Shown: positions 6,490 to 27,600 of the stretch, piece by piece
Layout: each line of letters opens with the position of its first letter
Position numbering within the stretch: position 1 is the first letter of the stretch
Assembly (NCBI RefSeq): GCF_963506605.1
Contig: NC_083288.1
Span: 45,818,001-45,882,000 of the forward strand
Direction: 5' to 3'
Length of the DNA stretch: 64,000 bases
Origin: Zootoca vivipara
Taxonomy: Eukaryota
Translations under genes and position numbers: made by a program
The notes under the pieces: model-generated
Database searches by the model: none
Seen by the model: only the letters and a program-made list of their open reading frames with translations
Told to the model about the DNA's origin: nothing

Positions 6490-9400
6490 TTATTTCCTGC
6501 TAAGCTGCTCCCTGCAGTTCAGTTCAGGTTTCAAGAGGATGATGTAGCATTTAGGGAGGAAGATACAAGCCAGTACACCAGCACTGGAAGCCAAGATGGA
6601 GAAGACCTCCACAGCCACCATGTGTTTTCCTCTTGTGCTTAGATAGGTTGGAACAAAAGAGACCCACACACTGCAAAATGCCAACATGCTGAATGTTATA
6701 AATTTAGCTTCATTAAAACTGTCTGGTAACTTGCGAGCAAGGAACGCCTCAATGAAGCTGGCAATGGCCAAAAGACCTAAGTAGCCCAGGACACAGTAAA
6801 ACATTGCAACAAGCCCTTCATTACATTGCACTATAATTTCTTCAGTTACTGAATACATGTCTAAATGGGGGAATGGGGGAGAGGTTGATAACCACACAGC
6901 ACAAATGCCTACTGGAATAAGGGAGCATGAAAGGACAATGGAAAAAGCCAGTCTTCTCCCCAGCCATTTCTTCATTCCAGAGCCAGGCTTTGAGGCCATA
7001 AATGCCAGAGAAACAATGGTTGTTTTTGCCAGAACGCATGAAACAACCACTGAGAAGATAATGCCAAATGTTGGTTGTCGGAGAAGGCAGATCGTTTTCC
7101 CAGGTTGGCCAATGAATAACAAAGAAGAGAGGAAGCAGAGCAGGAGGGAGATGAGGAGAGTGTAGGTAAGTTCCCGGTTGTTGGCTTTGACTATGGGGGT
7201 GTCTCTGTGCTTAATAAAAGTTCCTAGAATCAAGGCCGTGATCAGAGAAAAAGAAATTGCAAGTGAGGCTAAAGTGATCCCTATTGGTTCTTCATATGAG
7301 AGAAAAGTTTTGACTTTGGGGATGCACCCATTTTTATTCTTGTTTGGATATTGATCTTCTGGGCATCTGAAGCAGTCATCCATATCTGAAAAATAGAACA
7401 AGGGGTGTTGGAGAGAGAGAGATCTAGCTTCAGTGTATATTCATTGAGGGCATCTAATTATGATGGCAAAATGACATGATATACCAGTCAGGTTTGAAAT
7501 CTTCCCTTCTGGGCATGGGGTGCAATCATAGCAGCAAAACTTTTCTCCTTCCTTTTTCTTCTTCTGATGACCAGGCTGGCAGTGATCATTACACATAGAA
7601 AGAGGAAGCACCTATCCATAGACATGAAAATGTTTATGTTGGGTGGCATTTGGGGGGGGGGGAGCTTGTCTAGCCCAGTAGCATGCCTGGTAGCTCATGA
7701 AGAAATAGTATTCCTTCATTATCAGCACCCTTGACCCACCCTTCAGCATATGTTCCCAGAGTAGGGTATATTCAGAAGTAATATAATAAGTTTAAACAAT
7801 ATACTAAATGCATTTCTCCCCATAAGAATTGAGATACTTGGCATGGCAACCTTTCATATAGTGTTGAAGTTTTAGGTGGCACTGACTGCTTTCCAGAACT
7901 TAATGATTCACCAGAAAACCATGTTAGGTAAAGGTAAAGGGCCCCCTGACCTTTAGGTCCAGTCGTGACCGACTCTGGGGTTGCGGCGCTCATCTCGCAT
8001 TATTGGCCGAGGGAGCTGGCATACAGCTTCCAGGTCATGTGGCCAGCATGACAAAGCCACTTCTGGCGAACTAGAGCAGCGCACAGAAACACTGTTTACC
8101 TTCCCGCCGGAGCAGTACCTATTTATCTACTTGCACTTTGACGTGCTTTCGAACTGCTAGGTTGGCAGCAGCTGGGACTGAGCAACGGGAGCTCACCCCG
8201 CCACAGGGATTCGAACCGCCGACCTTCTGATCAGCAAGCCCTAGGCTCTGTGGTTTAACCCACAGTGCCACCTGCGTTCCCCCCCCTTTCTTTTGGCATT
8301 GCAACCTTTCAAATAGTGTTGAAGTTTTAGGTGGCACTGACTGCTTTCCAGAACTTGATGATTCACCAGAAAACCATGTTAGGTGTTAATAATAATAATA
8401 ATAATAATAATAAAGCCACTTCCGTGCCTTTGCCGGAGGTGGAGTTGTGGGCAGCCCGACGAGCCCATTGCGTGGGGGCTGCAGTGTCAGCCCCTACGCA
8501 ATGGTAGTGCCCGCCTGCGTCATCCGCCCCCTTGTCCAATAGGGATGAGGGGGCGGGGCCGCAGCGTTTAAACCCCTTCGCGCGGCCGGGGCCCGTTCTC
8601 TTTCTCCTTGTTCGCCGGAGCGAACAGAAGCACTCGTCGCAGTCCTTGGTTTTTTTTTGCCTTTGCCTCGTGCCTTCGCTTAATTTAGGTCCCGTTCATT
8701 GTTTCCCCACCTCGTTCCTCTTTTCTCTTCCTTTCCAGGTCCTGCCTCGTGGGAGCGTCGGGGGCTTTCTCCGCTCGGCAGTTCTTCCTCGCTCATCAGC
8801 TGTTCCTGGCAGCTGCGTCTTTAGCGCCAGTCAGCTGTTTTTCGGATCTGAGGCTCCCGCAGCCTTTAGGAGCTCACAGCCGCGGCGGATCCTGGGCGCC
8901 AGCAACGGAGGAACGCTAGCCAGCCGTATCCGGGCCCAAGGCTCCCACAGCCTCCAGGAGCCTTTTAGCTGCTGAGGTTCCAGCTGCTCTGGGGGCAGAG
9001 TTAGAGGCGGCTGCCTCCTCTCCCCGCTTTTACACAGGGACCTTTGTGCCAGGGATCTCCTCGGTCTGGTGAGTTAGCCGCCTATAGCGGTAAGAATCCC
9101 CCCAGCGCTTCTCTGCCTCCCTCTCGTGAGCTAGCCACTTTAGCGGTGGAAATCCCCCCAGCGCCTGCCTTCCTCCCTCTCGTGCTAGCGCAAACAACCC
9201 CTGAGCCTTAGCCATCTGCCCCCGGTTCTCCGCCTGGGGTTCAGCTTATGTACTTTGCCCTACTGGTTGCTATCCTAGTTTCTTGTTGGTTTGTATGGTG
9301 GTGGCTTGGGAGCGCGTGTTGTGTTAACCCCCCTTTTTCAGTGCGATCTCTGTTTGTTTTGTTTACCCAGCGCCATTTTGGGGAGGGCAGTGCTTGTGGT

Positions 9401-12400
9401 TTTTGTTCAGTGTGGTCGGCACCATTTTGGGAAGGGCTGTGTTTGTGGCTTTGCATAGTATAGCCGGCGCCATTTTGGGAAGGGATTGCTTGCTGTTTTG
9501 TCCTGCCTGGCCAGCGCCATTTTGGGGAGGGCAGTGCTTGTGAGGGCAGCGCCATTTTGAGTGGCTAATTCTTCCACGTGGCGGGCGCCATCTTGTGTGC
9601 GGCTTTGTTTTGTCGGTACTAGCAGCTCACTGTTCCTCCCTTGTATTGGTTCTCATTGCGCCCTGGTTTTTTAACTTATGTTACCCTGTCTTATCCTGGT
9701 GTTTTGAATTAATTCGTTGCATTTATTTAATTCGTGATATTCCCCAAGTGCATTTATTAATTATTGGTAACTGGTTTCTTTTTGGGCAGTTGGTTTTAAT
9801 TGATTGGGCGGACTGTTTTTGGTAATTTTACCAGGCAATTAATTATATATAGAAAAATAAATAAATAAATAAATTGGTATTGGGCAAATAGTTATATCTG
9901 CCCCTAGCTGAAATTAATTTGGGGTTGATTATTATTGGTTGGCATTGTTTCCGCCTTCTGAAGTGTGGATAAATAGATCTATTATATAGGGAATTGATTG
10001 CAGTATATAGAAGTAGCTGAGTGTTTATTGTATATTTTATCAGGGTTGCATTTACTTAATTCGTGATATTCCCCAAGTGCATTTATTAATTATTTGGTAA
10101 ACTTGCTTCTTTGGGCAGCTGGTAATAATTGATTGGTTACAGGCGTATACATAGATAAATTTAGTTANNNNNNNNNNNNNNNNNNNNNNNNNNNNNNNNN
10201 NNNNNNNNNNNNNNNNNNNNNNNNNNNNNNNNNNNNNNNNNNNNNNNNNNNNNNNNNNNNNNNNNNNNNNNNNNNNNNNNNNNNNNNNNNNNNNNNNNNN
10301 NNNNNNNNNNNNNNNNNNNNNNNNNNNNNNNNNNNNNNNNNNNNNATACATATCGTAGTTATATAAGTGAGGGAGTTAATTCCATAGCATTTGTCAAAAG
10401 TCCTTGCGACCATGGCTTCCAAGGGCAAGCAGGGCCAGGCCAAAAACCTGGCAGCTAAGGTAAATCCTAAGGCTTTCGCCCAGGCGGTAAATGCATTGCA
10501 ATCCATTTGTGGCCAGCTGGGCCCTCTCTGCAGCACGCTGGTCCCACTGGCCGAAAGCCTACAGGATGACTCCCCACCCAATTCACAGGATTGTGTAGCA
10601 GATACCCAGCTTGATGACCTGGATGGGCCGTCCACCTCCGCTTCCTTTTTCTCTACCTCCACCTCTGGGGGGGTTAGCGACGGGGCTCAGGGACCGCGCA
10701 CCCGGTCGCAGAAAGCACGCTCCAATACTCCCGGCCAGCAATCAGTGGCTTCAGGGTCTCAGGTGCTCAGCTCCTGCAGCGGGGCAGCCCAGTCTGTTGC
10801 AGGTCAGATGGGGACTCAGCCCGCGGTGGCAGCGGCTCAGCAGGGGGCGCAGGCGCGCGATTCGACCACGGATGACGAGGCGGCGGGGCGCGCGGTGGGC
10901 GGAGTTGCGGAGTCGCGGGATGGAGAAGACCGTCGCCAGGGAGGAAAGGCGAAGAAGAAGTCGGAGAAACGTAAGAGGAGCAGAAGGGACGATTCGGACG
11001 ACGACACAGGTACGTCCTCGGATTCGGAATGCGACATCCCAATGGAGGATTATTGGGGTGTGGGGGAGGACCAGATGGGTTTCCCCCTTTGGGTGCATAA
11101 AAGGAGGGCCAGCTCCCATCGTAAGTCATTTAGGGGTACGCTGGAGTGGCGCGACGGTGCGTTAATTCCCGACGAAAAGTATGCCACAAATTCGGACACG
11201 GATATCCTTTTGGGTTCTCATCTGTCAGATAAAAAGAGGGAAAAAATTTTAAATGGTGACTATATTGATGTGTTCACCATTCTTCCCCTGACTCAGATGA
11301 TGGGAAAGGGGGAGAAGCGCCGGGATTACAGGGGTCGGCGATATAGGACACCTCGGGCCGACCGCACTTTTGAAAATTGGTTAGAGGGCATTCACATTTG
11401 GGCGGCCGTGATTTCTGCGGCATACCCAAAGCGAGCGGTGCACCTATTTGCTTACATGGCCGACGTCAGGTTGGCTCACAAGATGGCGGGGGAGACGGCA
11501 GCTTTGAACTACGACGAAGACTTCCGTAGGAATGCTTCAAAAAACCCAAAAACGCGTTGGGACCAACGGCACCAACACTACTGGAGTAACCATGTAGTGC
11601 CGTATGTTGAGAAAAAACAAACTGACCCCCCGAAAGCGGGCAGGTTTGAGCCTAAAAAAGACCCACGGCGTAGGGTCTGTTGGGAGTTCAATAAAGGTCT
11701 TTGCCAGAGGCCCAACTGCAAATACACTCACGAATGTGAGAAGTGCCTGGGTCAGCATCCGGGGGTATCTTGCTTCAAGGGAAAGCAGTCCTTTCGGGGG
11801 GCCAAGGGCAATTCTCACCAGGGCCCCAGATACCCCCCCGGTGCCTCCCACGGTGCAGCCTCAGGACAGAATAGATTCTAACTGTTCTCTAGCCATAGCC
11901 AACTCCCCTGTAAAATTGAACCCCTTAAAAAAGTTGCTAGCCCTATACCCTAATAGATCTGCTGCAGTGTACCTTGAAGAGGGTTTCTCTTCTGGTTTTC
12001 GCATCCCCGTTCAGACCCCACCTTCCACAACCGACCCACCAAATCAAAAGTCAGTTAGGGAGTGTCCTGACATAGCCGTTAAGAAAATAAATAAGGAACT
12101 ATCGGCGGGCCGGGTCGCGGGCCCATTTTTAACTCCACCTATAGCCAACCTTCACATTTCCCCGCTAGGCATAGTTCCTAAAAAGGCCCCAGGAGAGTTT
12201 AGGTTGATTCATAATCTTTCTCACCCTAGGGGTAGCTCAGTTAATGACGGTATCCCGCAAGAGCTTTGTACGGTAAAATACGCCTCCTTTGACCACGCGG
12301 TGAAGCTGGTTCGCCAGTTTGGCGAAGGGGCCATGATGGCGAAGTGCGATATCGAATCTGCCTTCCGCCTCCTTCCTGTACACCCCCACGACTACAAATG

Positions 12401-15400
12401 GTTGGGTTTTAGGTTCGAGGGCGCTTATTTCATTGACAAAGCTATGCCCATGGGATGTTCCGTTGCCTGTTCGGCCTTTGAAACATTTAGCACATTCCTG
12501 GACTGGGCCCTTCGTGCTAGGACTGGTCTGTCAGGTGTCACTCATTACCTGGACGACTTCCTTTTCGTGGGGGGAGCGCACAGTGCTGATTGCGCAGGCC
12601 TCATGGAGGCCTTCGCTTCTCTTACAAGCGAACTGGGGGTGCCGCTAGCAGCGGATAAAACTGAAGGACCTGTGTCTCGTTTAACGTATTTAGGTATTGA
12701 ATTGGATACGGTAGCCCAAACCTCGCGTTTACCGGCTGAAAAACTTGCAGCCCTTAAGGAGTTGATTAGCCAGCTTATTCCTCGCAAAAAAGTCACGTTG
12801 AGACAAATCCAATCGCTGCTGGGGCACCTTAATTTCGCTTGTAAAGTAATCTCGCCTGGTCGCCCCTTTTGCCGGAGGGTTGCCAGGCTCACCGTAGGTC
12901 TAACCCGACCGTTCCATAGGGCCCGTTTGCCGAAAGGGGTGAGAGCGGACCTGCGGAACTGGCTTACCTTTCTAGAACACTACAATGGCGTATCTTTATG
13001 GCAGGATAACATCACACTATATTCAGACTTTCAGATTCATTCCGATGCAGCGGGCGCATTGGGTTTCGGGGTATATTTCAGAGGGAGATGGTGTGCTGAA
13101 CCTTGGCCTCCTAGCTGGAAAAACACAGACATTACTCGGGATTTAACATTTCTAGAATTCTTTCCCATAGTGGTAGCAGTACATCTTTGGTCGGACGACT
13201 TCAGGAACCGGAGAGTCTGCTTCAACACGGACAATCAAGCAGTAGTCAGTGTGCTTACCAGGCAATCGTCGCGGTCGGAGAGGGTGTCTGCCCTCCTACG
13301 TCATTTTGTGCTGCACAGTCTCGAGTTAAATATGCACTTCTCAGCCAAATTCGTGCCGGGACAAAATAATAATATCGCAGATGCTTTGTCTCGTTTCCAG
13401 ATGGACCGCTTCCGCTCATTAGCACCGGATGCGCAGCAGTGTCCAGAGAGGTTCCCGGAACACCTATGGAACCTTGGAAACGGGAAATCCTAAAGGGAGT
13501 ATTTGCTTCCGTGGCCCCTGCCACCCTCAGCTCCTACAAACGAGCATGGGCAGACTTCCTTGCCTTCCAGCAGAAGGGCGCTGGTGTGCGCCTTGAGAGC
13601 CCACCTACCCCTGAGGAGGTTATGCAATACGTGGTATACCTCAGAGGGTTGGGCCGCGCCGCCAAGACTCTTGGCATCCACACTGCAGCTATCACCTTTT
13701 TCTCGAAATCTCTTTATCTCACCGACCCGTGCGATAATTTCCATTTGCGTAGAGCAATGGAAGGCTGGCGTAGGCTGCAGCCTCCCGTTCCCGATTCCAG
13801 GCGACCCATTACGTTCGAGATGCTTACCCAAATCCATAGGCAATTGAGAACCCTTTGTTGGTCCAAATTTGAAGCGCGGCTGTTTTCGGCAGCCTTTTCG
13901 ATAGCTTACTTTGGGGCCCTTAGGGTCGGGGAGGTGGTGTGTGAGGACCACCCTGATGGTGTTACCCGGGGTATATTATTACGGGATCTATCGCTGTCCG
14001 ATGCCCAGGCTATCGTGCACGTCCGCCATTCAAAAACGGACCAGAGGGGGAGAGGCGCTAGCATTCGCCTCCCGGCAACAGGCGCCGCAGGTCCTTGTCC
14101 AGTGAAGGACACTAGGCGGTATCTTTATCTCCGACCGCCGGGTCCTGGCCCGTTATTCATTCACCATGATGGTGCACGGCTCACTCGTCAACAATTTACC
14201 AGGGTACTTCGCAAAGCCATTGCATCTTGCGGGTACAACCCCACAGAATTTTCTGCCCATTCCTTTAGAATTGGCGCCGCCACTTCCGCTATGCACCTAG
14301 GTTTGTCATCAGAAAGGATCCAGGAGATGGGGAGATGGAAGTCGAATGCTTACAGAAGGTACATTCGCACGTAGGTAGACTCTGGTGGCGGTGCTGATCC
14401 GGCTTTTCATCTTTACTTTTCAGGTTACCATTTCATCCGGGTTTGGATAGCGGGGCACAGTATAGTGCACTGGGCCCTGAAAAGGGCAATCGAAGTTGGT
14501 CTGGGATGCGGGCTCGGCCTTCCGGAAAATGTGGAGGTTTCCTGGATATCCAGAAGGGGTATGCGGTGGAGCGAGTTGCTGCCGATCATCCAGGCCCGGG
14601 CTGCTTCACTTGGCCCCCCAGAAGTCCTGATTGTGCAACTCGGTGAAAACGACCTAGCTTACCGCAATGCGGTCGATTTGAGGAAACATATATTCAAAGA
14701 TTTCGACGTCATGAGGGAGAGTTTCCCGCGGATGACGTTATTGTGGTCCTCTTTGTTGGAAAGGCGCTGTTGGCGTGACGGCCGTTGCCCTAAAGCCTTG
14801 AACAATTCCAGGAGGCTTTTGAACTCAGTCGTGGCCCGCAGAGTGTTATCCTTGAATGGCCGGGTTATACAGCATCCCACCCTGAAACGAAGTGAAGCAG
14901 CCCTCTATCGCGAGGATGGCGTTCACCTTTCTCCGATCGGGAATGACGCCTGGCTACTGAACGTTATTGCTGCCATTCGAGATGTCCTGGACATATAGAT
15001 CTTAATTAGGCGAATAAGAGAGTAGGGTCACACCTCCCCGATAATATCTTAATTCATATCTTATAACAAATTAACCGAGGGCTAAGCTACTAATTAGGGT
15101 TACGCTAAAAATTAATATCTAGGTGCCTATAACATGTGAGCGGATTGGCGGCGAGCCTGGGGGGGCTCGAGTGGCGGTTAGGCGTTGGAAATTTGCATAA
15201 CAATAAGATGGAGGAGGGGCAGATTGCGTCATCACCTGCCCAAATTTGGAGAAGTAATTCCGTTAAAGGATTCCGGGGGCGAGGCTTGGTCCAGAGCCTG
15301 GAGTCGCCAGGGCCGTAAGGCACGCCCCGTACGGTGGCCACAGAAGGAGTTCCGGTTGATCGGCATCGCCGGGTTCCTTACTGGTGGTTAACTTCTCACG

Positions 15401-18120
15401 GACTCCAACACACGGGTTGGAGTCGGATTTAGTCTGATAGGTTCCAACGCCTAAGCCAATTCCGCTCAACATGCATATTTAATAAAGTTGTGGCCTGAAC
15501 CACCCAATTAACCTTTAAATTCTGTGTCACGTGTCATTATTACACTGATCGGAGGGCATTGCTACACAAAGCCACTTCCGTGCCTTTGCCGGAGGTGGAG
15601 TTGTGGGCAGCCCGACGAGCCCATTGCGTGGGGGCTGCAGTGTCAGCCCCTACGCAATGGTAGTGCCCGCCTGCGTCATCCGCCCCCTTGTCCAATAGGG
15701 ATGAGGGGGCGGGGCCGCAGCGTTTAAACCCCTTCGCGCGGCCGGGGCCCGTTCTCTTTCTCCTTGTTCGCCGGAGCGAACAGAAGCACCCGCCCACCCG
15801 CCCCTTAAAAAGAGAATAGGGGGCGCTGCTGCGGACCTGGTCGGTTGCCTGGTTAGTCAGTGGACCGGGTAGGACTTTTCCCATACTGGGCTAGCCATGA
15901 TGGGTTTTTCGCCTACCTCGTAGCATGTCGTCACAACTTAGGTTAGGCGGTTAGGCGTTGGAAATTTGCATAACAATAAGATGGAGGAGGGGCAGATTGC
16001 GTCATCACCTGCCCAAATTTGGAGAAGTAATTCCGTTAAAGGATTCCGGGGGCGAGGCTTGGTCCAGAGCCTGGAGTCGCCAGGGCCGTAAGGCACGCCC
16101 CGTACGGTGGCCACAGAAGGAGTTCCGGTTGATCGGCATCGCCGGGTTCCTTACTGGTGGTTAACTTCTCACGGACTCCAACACACGGGTTGGAGTCGGA
16201 TTTAGTCTGATAGGTTCCAACGCCTAAGCCAATTCCGCTCAACATGCATATTTAATAAAGTTGTGGCCTGAACCACCCAATTAACCTTTAAATTCTGTGT
16301 CACGTGTCATTATTACACTGATCGGAGGGCATTGCTACACAATAATAATAACAACAAACAACAACAATAATAATTTTACGATTTATAAAAAACACAATAA
16401 AACAGCTCATCCACATTTGCATTTCCTCCACTCTTTCAAGAAACGTCCTGTGCTTTAGGGCTCTGTCCCACAGTGCTCCCTCATGAAAACCAGCTCTTTA
16501 AAGCTGAATGGAAGCAAATGATTCAGCTTTGAAGAGTGGATTTTCACAGGGAAAGTTGTTGGGGGGGGCAGTTTGGACACAGAGCACTGAAGTGCAGACT
16601 TCTGCCTTGAAAGAGCGGGGCTAAGAACTGAATCCTGATGCATTAACATCCCAGTTGGTATAAAGAAGATCCCTCAAGAGAACAGGAGAATCCATACCTG
16701 ATTAAAATGACTGTGCCACACAATCATATGCTCATTAATGGTGAATTTGCTTTCTTCTAAATCATTGGGATCCACCTTTCCAACTCTCACTGTCTGGAAG
16801 GAGTTGTTGGGGAATAGGACCAGGTTCGTTATATCAAACCCACTTCTCATTTCCCTTTTATTATTAAAAGACACAGCTTCATTTGCTGAGTTGTTAAATG
16901 AAATGTCTCGGAGAAATTGGTGGAGCTAGTTGGGGGGAAAACAGAGCAAGTAACAGAAGGTGTAACATGGTTGTGGGAATTTTAGACTCAAATTCGTTTC
17001 AGGTTCTGCACCACCTGTTCATTAGCCAGCTGAGGGTACACTTTTTAAAATTAAACACAGAACCAAGAACCTGGTTTCTTAACTATCGTGATAGGACTGC
17101 CTTCCCAACCAGTTGCCTTCCCAACCAAATTCTCTAATTGGGAAAAGCATTGAGTCTCTTTCCCAAGGCAGTGGATTGAAGCAAAGGGAGATTTAGCACA
17201 CTTACCATTAGTTGTTTCTATTATATTTTGTATGTCATCTTCATATATACAAAGATTTATGTTTGAAATAAGATTCGCAAAGGCATCACGTATATTACAG
17301 TGAGAATAGGGTTCTGGATGAGATGGGATTTTGGTCCGATCTACAAGTCCTCTTATGTTCATATGTAGGCTCCACCTTTCTTTGATTTAGAACCCTGAAT
17401 GTGCAGGGGGAGCCTCAATGGAGAGGGAATTCCATGCATCAGAAGAATGCCCTTCAGTTCATGGTGGTGGGTTGTTAGGATAGGGACTATGTCTATCAGC
17501 TCCATCTGGTACGCAGGCTGAGTCCCTACCTGCCTGCAGACTGTCTCGCCAGAGTGGTGCATGCTCTAGTTATCTCCCGCTTGGACTATTGCAATGCTCT
17601 CTATGTGGGGCTACCTTTGAAGGTGACCCGGAAACTACAACTAATCCAGAATGCAGCAGCTAGACTGGTGACTGGGAGCGGCCGCCGAGACCACATAACT
17701 TTGGTCTTGAAAGACTTGCATTGGCTCCCAGTACGTTTCCGAGCACAGTTCAAAGTGTTGGTGCTGACCTTTAAAGCCATAAACAGCCTCAGTCCAGTAT
17801 ACCTGAAGGAGCGTCTCCACCCCCATTGTTCTGCCCGGACACTGAGGTCCAGTACCGAGGGCCTTCTGGCGGTTCCCTCGTTGCGAGAAGCCAAGTTTCA
17901 GGGAACCAGGCAGAGGGCCTTCTCAGTGGTGGTGCCCACCCTGTGGAATACCCTCCCATCAGATGTCAAAGAGAAAAACAGCTACCAGATTTTTACAAGG
18001 CATTTGAAGGCAGCCCTGTTTATGGAGGCTTTTAATGTTTAATAGATTATTTCATTTCATTTTTCTGTTGGAAGCCGCCCAGAGTGGCTGGGGACCCCAG
18101 CAGCCAGATGGTATAAATAA

Positions 18121-24663: not shown

Positions 24664-27600
24664 TCAATGCTTCCTCCTTATCAGTTGCTCCCTGCTATTC
24701 AGCTCAGGCCTCAGCACAAGGAAGTAGCATTTAGGGCAAAAGATACAACCCAGTAACCCAGCAGTGGAGGCCAAGATGGAGAAGATCTCCACAGCCACCA
24801 GGCTTTTCCCTCCTGTGCTCAGGTAAGTTGGAATAAAGGACAACCAAACACTGCAAAAGGCCAACATGCTGAAAGTGATGAATTTTGCTTCATTAAAACT
24901 ATCAGGCAACTTGCGAGCAAGGAATGCCACCATGAAGCTGGTGATGGCCAGAAGACCCATGTAGCCCAAGACACAGTAGAACATGACGACTGACCCTTCA
25001 TTACATTGCAGAATGATTTCTTCCTTTGCTGAGTACATGTCAAAATCAGGAAATGGAGGAGAGGTTGCCATCCATGCAGTACAAAAACATATTTGAACAA
25101 GCGAACAGCAAATTACAATTGAATAGGACACTTTCCTCCCCATCCATTTCTTTATTCTGGATCCTGGTTTTGTAGCCATGAATGCTAGGGAAACTATGGT
25201 GGTCTTTGCCAACACACAAGAAACAGCCACTGAGAAGACAATGCCGAAAGTTGGTTGTCGGAGAATGCAGGTCAATTTCCCAGGTTGGCCAAGGAATAAC
25301 AAAGAAGATAGGAAACAGAACAGGAGGGAGACGAGGAGAGTATATGAAAGGTCCCGGTTGTTGGCTTTCACCATTGGCGTATCTTTCTGCTTAATAAATA
25401 TTCCTAACACGAGAGCTGTGATCAGAGAAAAGGAAACCACAGCTGAGACTAAAGTGATTCCTAAAGGTTCATCGTATGACAGAAAGGTTATAACTTTGGG
25501 GGTGCAATCATTTTTATTCTTGCTTGGATACTGAGCTCCTGGGCATTTGAAACAGTCATCTACATCTGAAAAATAGGAAAAGGTTCCATTTCAGTGTCAA
25601 TTTATTAGACACAAGACAGTAAATTAGCCCTTATGCTGCTAGAATTTAATCATCTACCAGTCTGGTTAGAAATCTTCCCTTCTGGGCACAGAACACAATC
25701 ATAGCAGCAAGATTTCTCCCCTTCCTTCCTTTTTTCCCGATTACCAGGCTGGCAGTGTTCATTACACAAAGAAAGGGGAAGCACCTATCCATATAAAGGA
25801 AAAAGAAGATTAGTGTGGGGATAATTTTAGTTTATTTTCTTCCTTTGCTTTTTGTTTTCAATTCTCCTGTGCACTGATTAGTAACTCTGCAGTTAAGTAT
25901 TAGAAAATAGTTGAAACAGCTAATTGCATATGAAAAATGAGTCAATCTCCAATTGCTGATGTAGCCTAATGCCTTAGACTATAACCACAAACCATTTTAT
26001 CCTTTGAACTGCCCTGTCACTTGCAGGTATAAGGCAGCATATTAATTCAATTAGCAGCAGCAGCAGCAACAACAACAGATACTACCAAATTAGTGCTTGC
26101 AAGTCACCTGAACTGAAATTGAATAAAGTGGACTAATTTATCTTCAGTTACAGGTAGGTAGCCGTGTTGGTCTGATGTAGTCAAAACAAAATAAAAATAA
26201 AATTCCTTCCAGTAGCACCTTAGGAACCAACTAAGTTTGTCACTGGTATGAGCTTTCGTGAATGCACATTTCTTCAGATACCATCTTTGACAGCTATGAA
26301 AGAAAACTTCCGTCTCCCTGAAGCAGAATCTAGTTTCAGAAGATAAAATGCTTTATATCTTCTCATAGGATGGGAAAGCAACAAATGTCTACAGTATCTG
26401 AATTAGATAAATTTTGAGACATGCGAGCCACATTCCTGTAAATGAAGATATTCCAGATTTCACCCCCCCAAAATGGCTACAATGTTTTCAGTGTAAGGAG
26501 CACTTAATTTTTTGAGATTTGTTTACAAGGCATGCTTTCAGAATAAATGAAATTTACAACCCATTCAGTATGTCTTGAACACATGCTATTTGCCACATTT
26601 TAGATATTTAACTGTGAGGTTTTTATGCAAATTCAGGTGGTAAGGATTAAAAGGGGTCTGTTTTAAAATTTTCTGAGAAGCTGTGGAGTAGTGATGCTTG
26701 TCGACTTGGGTAGCTTTAGGAGCGGATTACAAAAAAATCTTGGTGGAAAGAATTATCAGTCGTTACTAGCCACAATGGGTATCTTCCAATTCAACTGTCA
26801 GAATAAATATGTATCAAAATATCAATTGCTGGAAACCACAACTGGGTAGAGTGTTGTTGTGCACAATTCCTGCTTGTTTTCCTCCAACAGCGGTATGTTT
26901 GGCCCTAGTGAGAACATCTAATTAAATTAGATGAGCCTTCCAACTGATGTGATGCAGTAGGGTCTTCTTATATTCTCCTGGGTATTAAATATGTGATGAT
27001 GAAAAATACAGTTCGAAGATGTTCTTCTGCTCAATGTTGATGTGAAAATCACAGAAAGGTGCTGCTGGAGGGATGTGTAAGAGGTAGAGGGAATTATGCT
27101 TCTAACATTGTCCTGAAAAGCACCGCCTCATTTATACCCTATGCCATTATCACCAAAAGATTCCACGAACCTTACAAGCAGCAGACTATAGATGATCTGA
27201 GAGGTGGAGTTAACATCATAGCTGCCAAGTATCCCGTTTTCACCGGGAAAACCCCTTTTTTCCTACCGTTTCCCGGCGGTCTCCCGTTTAGGTTTTTATC
27301 CCGATATTCTCCCTTAAATCTGCTTCTGCCGGCGGCCATTTTTCTGGTGCCGCTTTGCCCTTCTATGGGCACCAGAAAATGGCGCCGGTCGCTTCTACGC
27401 GTGTCCAGAAACGCAACTTCCGGTGGCGCTTTGCCCTTCTATGGGCACCAGAAAATGGCGGCGGCGGTGCCGGAAGTCGCTTTTACGCATTTCCGGTCAT
27501 GCATAGAAGCGACTTCCGGCACTGGCGCTGCCATTTTCTGGTGCCCATAGAAGGGCAAAGCGCCACCCGAAGTTGCGTCTACGCAACTTCCGGTGTCGTG

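Follow-up and report, generated by a model that had tools for sequence, protein, structure and literature searches.

A 64,000-nt stretch of the Zootoca vivipara genome (NC_083288.1, 45,818,001-45,882,000, forward strand; here called the window, within which all positions are given) contains a retrotransposon that, judged from its sequence, is an intact Ngaro element with a hydrolase frame after the tyrosine recombinase (YR). This last frame encodes an SGNH esterase that lacks a start codon, and it is very probably expressed by splicing from a donor inside gag, with the exon end at 11009, to an acceptor ending at 14423. The recombinase is probably expressed in the same way, from the same donor to an acceptor at 13400. 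One donor and two acceptors, combined with a +1 ribosomal slip from gag into pol, would constitute an expression scheme for the whole element that we regard as likely.

The esterase frame and its predicted splice sites

The earlier note on this DNA described the esterase frame as having its catalytic blocks but no start codon ahead of the catalytic Ser. This is correct; the first Met of the frame is at 14561 and the Ser at 14459. The Ser, Gly, and Asp residues of the SGNH site are invariant in 16/16 aligned members, and Asn and His are found in 15/16. Thirteen of these 16 esterases match Lipase_GDSL_2 at E <= 0.1, the window copy itself giving no match, and the top PDB sequence match of the esterase profile is the ZfL2-1 esterase 4c1b (E 2e-4). 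The structural model has a mean predicted local distance difference test score (pLDDT) of 92.7 and a Foldseek template modelling (TM) score of 0.7-0.78 against GDSL/SGNH esterases. According to this model the frame encodes a five-stranded α/β SGNH fold, for which enzyme activity is predicted. The ratio of nonsynonymous to synonymous substitutions (dN/dS) is 0.12-0.20 in five within-family pairs, and the frame is therefore under selection as a protein and must be translated somehow.

From the gag ATG at 10412 to the donor exon end there are 598 nt, i.e., 199 codons plus one nucleotide, which places the donor in phase 1. The acceptor, ...TTTTCATCTTTACTTTTCAG/ (the slash denotes the splice junction), has pyrimidines at 15 of 17 positions, and when 11009 is joined to 14424 an open frame of 390 aa results, with its stop at 14998. 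Donor, acceptor, phase, and open join had all been claimed previously and were reproduced when recomputed. The same applies to the skipping of the Gag Zn finger, the reverse transcriptase (RT), and YR, as the fusion contains neither the conserved Gag core nor the Zn finger. When scored with a donor weight matrix, the donor ranks first of the 66 GT sites in the window gag. As a background for the acceptor, 194 of 1869 YAG sites (10%) in 12 element bodies have at least 12/17 pyrimidines and no nearer AG.

The conservation of these sites was evaluated within the same genome. Eighty long loci were taken across the homologue match lists, and nine of them (L069, L080-L086, L107) were dropped because the GHS block was not located. 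The set used for the esterase acceptor thus consists of 71 loci and the window copy, each with a located GHS motif. In all 72 elements a YAG with a pyrimidine tract is found 20 or 17 nt before a conserved Trp, and a phase-1 donor is always required; the pairwise esterase identity among the compared elements goes down to 41%. A branch-point-like motif is present in 71/72, but this pattern is loose and without a control, and is given little weight. A GT is retained at the homologous Gly codon in 45 of the 47 gags that are intact, where the variable N-terminal part of Gag gives way to its conserved core. The earlier note had proposed other hydrolase-bearing Ngaro families as a test of its reading, and across many sister families in this genome the sites and their phase are retained at these frequencies. 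The donor codon is GGT in 11/11 family representatives having the site (in L104 it is two alignment columns off), while GGT accounts for 143/502 Gly codons in the compared gags. Among invariant four-fold columns used as controls, none keeps one codon (0/26 in the gag core and 0/145 in pol).

It is hardly credible that the splice-like sites are unused and due to chance or to the conservation of the proteins. What speaks for this is that no junction is listed in the eight sequencing runs described below, and that three pattern searches for spliced genomic copies gave 0 matches for the window-family esterase exon (unspliced control: 25), for the YR exon, and for the P0013 family; genome searches with the whole proteins P0002, P0013, and P0030 gave split matches only and no spliced copy. 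However, the esterase acceptor is non-coding and yet kept in every element, synonymous sites elsewhere are saturated, and the purifying selection on the esterase means that it is translated by some route.

One such route would be read-through of the YR stop, producing a YR-esterase fusion. In the window copy no change of frame separates this stop (14372-14374) from the esterase, a point that the earlier note overlooked, and the two frames agree in 23 of the 52 elements whose YR is intact. In the other 29 they do not; the length of the spacer lies between 25 and 71 nt, and its indels break the frame even between close copies, in which the acceptor is nonetheless kept. Read-through was consequently rejected as a general route and seems highly improbable as the way in which the esterase is made.

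RefSeq gene models correspond to the predicted joins. Those denoted P0002, P0011, and P0013, from three sister families, equal predicted Gag-N/esterase joins (Gag-N being the part of Gag encoded before the donor) over 397/397, 429/429, and 461/461 residues; their introns are about 3.4 kb, and their donors are weak (ranked 4-11). Twelve of the 15 longer homologues are lacertid RefSeq models in which Gag-N is ended after a basic and Ser/Asp run and followed by the esterase, and a similar basic patch precedes the esterase in two gecko models. In the Podarcis models P0008 and P0023 a basic and Ser block is tandemly repeated before the esterase. RefSeq models with isoform numbers usually rest on RNA reads, and some of these carry such numbers.

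Several observations weigh against splicing from gag to the esterase. RefSeq models are predictions, and annotation by itself proves little; of 14 further esterase models, seven join from YR-internal sites and four read in from an intron. Two loci of one family, L109 and L110, are without the homologous donor and have instead a phase-1 CAG/GTATGT about 50 codons upstream, from which the joins are open. All DNA comparisons were made within one genome among families related by descent, so that the counts do not represent independent draws, although the control columns have that descent in common with them. The remaining points come from the eight runs, comprising raw reads (X11-X13; about 6% of each, with 464, 97, and 83 element reads) and contigs (X1-X5, presumed to represent RNA). 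The earlier note had suggested junction reads as a check, and this gave no support: neither the 11009-to-14424 nor the 11009-to-13401 joint is listed in any run, the raw runs, which cover donor, acceptor, and esterase at a depth of no more than about 1x, being too thin for a junction test. A diverged copy is represented in X3 and X4 by deep contigs that pass unspliced over both the donor and the esterase acceptor and dominate there, and X1 has an unspliced contig covering 10881-15265. Since contigs lose rare forms, these data set only a loose bound on the spliced share and are no proof that it is absent.

In X2 a contig of depth 21.4 breaks off exactly at 11009, and the following one (depth 13.1) starts at 10980, giving an overlap of 30 nt. 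With words of 31 letters, this break was interpreted as a branching of the graph at the donor, and as such it speaks for use of the donor; the alternative path is absent from the contig rows shown. An esterase splice would branch at 11011, because both paths begin with GT. The branch at 11009 thus suits the YR exon, or some exon not yet known, but not the esterase exon, which is a further point against the esterase join.

The acceptors might also be real but served by another donor, in the leader, a host gene, or a YR-internal exon, or an internal promoter and a non-AUG start codon might give rise to the esterase. In favor of this, there are RefSeq models in which the esterase exon is joined to host exons (P0014) or to YR-internal sites, and the contig depth in X3 and X4 increases towards the 3′ end. 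Against it, no conserved leader donor, leader intron, or pre-gag acceptor was found in 19 elements, and there is no phase-1 donor with a 7/9 consensus match after 11735 in the window. Nor does it account for the invariant GGT donor codon, and we find it quite improbable. Splicing from the gag donor is thus the reading retained for the esterase below.

The recombinase and pol frames

The X2 branch, whose other path does not begin with G, led to the acceptor at 13400, where the next base is A. The site, TTTCCAG/ATG, is in phase 1 for the YR frame, and a join from the gag donor gives 523 aa. Its AG is present in 64 of 65 elements in which the RNase H motif was found, and the Gag-N/YR join is open to the end of YR in 40/44. 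In all 65 elements the YR frame is closed 6-10 codons upstream of the acceptor. Downstream of it the frame is open in 13/13 representatives, while synonymous shuffling of pol keeps it open in 14-41%. A homologue search made after this join had been predicted gave three matches, two of which are RefSeq models (P0030 and P0032) of the Gag-N/YR type. Of the two, P0030 was mapped, to locus L115, with a GT-AG intron at sites homologous to the gag donor and the YR acceptor. Two points count against the site: it is embedded in conserved RNase H codons, and CAG is also kept in one of eight other invariant Gln columns.

The first of these points also favors the alternative that only the esterase is spliced, while YR is translated from its own ATG (13467 in the window) or by a frameshift from pol, since RNase H codons constrain the acceptor-like sequence. 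An ATG is found at the nominal YR start in 43 of the 65 elements. The others have TTG (12), GTG (7), or another codon (3), the codon varying between ATG, TTG, GTG, and CTG at a pol wobble position, and the 22 codons before it are open in 13/13 families. Furthermore, no common slippery heptamer for a shift from pol to YR was seen in the codons inspected, and P0030 and P0032 join Gag-N at the YR acceptor. This alternative is accordingly considered unlikely. The original splice interpretation therefore stands as far as the esterase is concerned, but it was incomplete, as the gag donor is most likely used for a second acceptor as well, the one before YR.

For pol a different solution is predicted. 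In 46 of 47 gags TCC or CCC followed by TTT and CGN is found in frame near the end of gag, the exception reading FHG, whereas in the background TTT is used for 102/180 Phe codons and CGN for 314/560 Arg codons. Pol follows this YCC_TTT_CGN motif as a long open reading frame (ORF) in the +1 frame, without a conserved ATG. UCC_UUU_CGN is the +1 frameshift motif of influenza PA-X and vertebrate ASXL1, and the CGG variant is described as working at about half efficiency (PMC5644247). The Ngaro element shares with these the zero-frame motif and the long +1 ORF; it differs in that the product would be a retrotransposon Gag-Pol, and in that CCC replaces UCC in many families. From these sequence features we think it reasonably likely that pol is made as a 1026-aa Gag-Pol by a +1 slip at TCC_TTT_CGG. 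A phase-1 acceptor at the start of pol (11892), although promising in the window, has no conserved counterpart in other families and was rejected.

Proposed expression scheme and known systems

In the proposed scheme the unspliced RNA would serve both as genome and as message for Gag and, by the +1 slip, Gag-Pol, while two spliced RNAs would encode Gag-N/YR (523 aa) and Gag-N/esterase (390 aa). The first 199 aa would be common to all four proteins; they are predicted to form a short helix, a disordered low-complexity linker, and a basic patch, and could bring the enzymes to the RNA particle or to the nucleus. Because the fusions are without the conserved Gag core and Zn finger, any co-assembly with particles would depend on the helix or on the binding of RNA. 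A loose counterpart of the helix is found in 14 gags. The single-sequence model of Gag is poor (mean pLDDT 38.9), and a complex prediction for self-binding of the helix scored 0.02, which gives no verdict either way.

It has been reported that the Xenopus elements DIRS-53_XT and DIRS-54_XT have split repeats in the order A1...B1 A2 B2 and encode gag, RT/RNase H, YR, and then an SGNH ORF (PMC9210276). The earlier note had likewise listed hydrolase ORFs after YR as known in some Ngaro elements. The portions available of that paper describe four overlapping ORFs and no proven hydrolase function, and contain neither "splic" nor "intron". The lizard element has the same repeats and ORF order; what it adds is a defined route by which the three downstream ORFs would be expressed.

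The ORF3s of long terminal repeat (LTR) elements are typically spliced, and the bdelloid Vesta elements carry a GDSL-esterase in ORF3 (PMC5408684). As in these and in retroviral env, the 3′ gene of the Ngaro element would be expressed from a subgenomic spliced RNA, with the esterase at the position of ORF3. It differs in that the donor is placed about 200 codons into gag, which would give a large fusion, and in that this donor would be used for the integrating enzyme as well. The analogy to env that had been drawn earlier thus holds for the mRNA route, with in-phase conserved GT-AG sites and pol skipped, but not for the product, a soluble SGNH fold rather than an envelope glycoprotein. Avian retroviral donors are placed a few codons into gag, and an SD′ RNA is known from murine leukemia virus (MLV).

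SGNH esterases were also said to occur in ORF1p of long interspersed nuclear elements (LINEs), and this is the case for ZfL2-1, whose ORF1p contains a coiled coil, an Arg-rich motif, and the esterase, and has been shown to form dimers and bind phospholipids (PMC3905857). The predicted Ngaro fusion has a comparable order of helix, linker, basic patch, and esterase. ZfL2-1 is, however, a non-LTR element with a single ORF and no splicing, and its dimer formation and lipid binding are data for ZfL2-1 only. By analogy the Gag-N/esterase may have a role at membranes.

No description of spliced or frameshifted Ngaro expression was found in the literature searched, which did not include Repbase, supplements, or older Ngaro papers that may mention splicing; the portions available of PMC9210276, PMC7192593, PMC6681497, PMC3783388, PMC3266345, PMC8547959, PMC5633606, PMC4495291, PMC9341512, and PMC12477816 contain none. 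How stacked, overlapping ORFs in the DIRS order are translated is not addressed in this literature, where the function of the Ngaro hydrolase is given as unknown. The scheme gives exact junctions, a slip site, and defined proteins (390, 523, and 1026 aa), and would explain how four genes are read from one RNA in a little-studied class of elements. If it is true, the recombinase and esterase ORFs of these elements have been drawn with the wrong N-terminus, and a group of lizard RefSeq genes labelled "uncharacterized" represent spliced products of transposons.

With somewhat less assurance we favor a wider view, in which hydrolase-bearing Ngaro elements follow a programme like that of complex retroviruses (Gag, Gag-Pol, Gag-N/YR, and Gag-N/esterase) with a common N-terminal address tag. 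The choice of splice site would then set the level of the integrating enzyme, other YR retrotransposons may share the arrangement, and the strength of the esterase acceptor would explain repeated capture of the esterase by host genes.

Element architecture, RNA on the B repeat, and possible host capture

The element extends from 8412 to 16342 (Table 1) and has split direct repeats in the order A1...B1 A2 B2 and four frames on the same strand, in the order gag, RT/RNase H (pol), YR, and esterase. A Pfam scan of the four ORFs gave RVT_1 and Phage_integrase above the cut-off and RNase H-like and gag Zn finger below it, and no methyltransferase family. The element was assigned to Ngaro because of the split repeats, the gag-RT/RNase H-YR order, the lack of a methyltransferase domain, and the hydrolase after YR. 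It is inserted in an AAT microsatellite (8380-8412, 16342-16360), so that a target-site duplication is hard to judge there. An AA core is common to both element ends and the B1/A2 junction, as insertion by the recombinase would predict.

Table 1. Features of the Ngaro element (positions within the window)
Feature	Positions	Strand	Remarks
Split direct repeat A1, left end	8412..8636	+	225 nt, 99.6% identical to A2
gag ORF, 489 aa, CCCH-type Zn finger at C-terminus	10412..11881	+	Zn finger below Pfam cut-off
Predicted N-terminal helix of Gag-N, aa 19-50	10466..10561	+	Single-sequence model, pLDDT 60-69
Lys/Arg cluster, aa 179-192, directly before donor	10946..10987	+	Possible nuclear localization signal or RNA-binding patch
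Splice donor CAG/GTACGT, phase 1, exon end 11009	11007..11015	+	Between variable Gag-N and conserved Gag core
TCC_TTT_CGG, predicted +1 frameshift site from gag to pol	11789..11797	+	Gag-Pol 1026 aa
pol frame (RT, RNase H), +1 relative to gag, without conserved ATG	11598..13493	+	
Second acceptor, ...GTCTCGTTTCCAG/, within RNase H codons ADALSRFQ	13377..13400	+	Phase 1 for YR frame
Tyrosine recombinase exon	13401..14374	+	Predicted Gag-N/YR fusion 523 aa
Esterase acceptor: branch-point-like CTGAT, pyrimidine tract, AG	14394..14423	+	
SGNH esterase exon	14424..14998	+	Ser 14459, Gly 14558, Asn 14648, Asp 14915, His 14924; predicted fusion 390 aa
Repeat B1, AATAAA at 15481	15173..15569	+	
Repeat A2	15568..15792	+	
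Repeat B2, right end	15946..16342	+	

The 2-kb leader contains short tandem repeat families at 9082-9542 and 9716-10136, with a spacing of about 48, 56, and 329 nt, and hardly any contigs of X2-X5 cover its part from 9117 to 10311. A copy with about 9% divergence, in which 32 nt of YR (14049-14080) are missing, accounts for the deepest contigs of X3 and X4, whose depth climbs from about 13750. Sense RNA is abundant at 15145-15540, on the B repeat, and many of its reads come in from the side of the A2 spacer; this RNA could consist of short transcripts running from A to B, made from the ends of elements or from solo units. The element is surrounded by minus-strand receptor exons (e.g., 6493-7440, 24667-25590, and 37199-38122), which from the look of their sequence we take to be of the vomeronasal type-2 receptor-like kind.

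For a ZNF638-like host gene (RefSeq LOC118079504, P0014/P0039) at G000:C9:2516000-2546100 (L099, L111-L113), the gene model includes a splice into the esterase exon of a Ngaro element. At a second esterase exon of this locus, contigs of X3, X4, and X5 begin 28-29 nt before the acceptor, which is the length expected of a contig across a junction with a host donor, although the letters were not seen. In long fish proteins and in a gecko protein with six copies (P0130, P0140, P0049, and similar) the esterase is found at or near the C-terminus. Taken at the level of sequence, this suggests that Ngaro-type esterases have been captured repeatedly by host genes.

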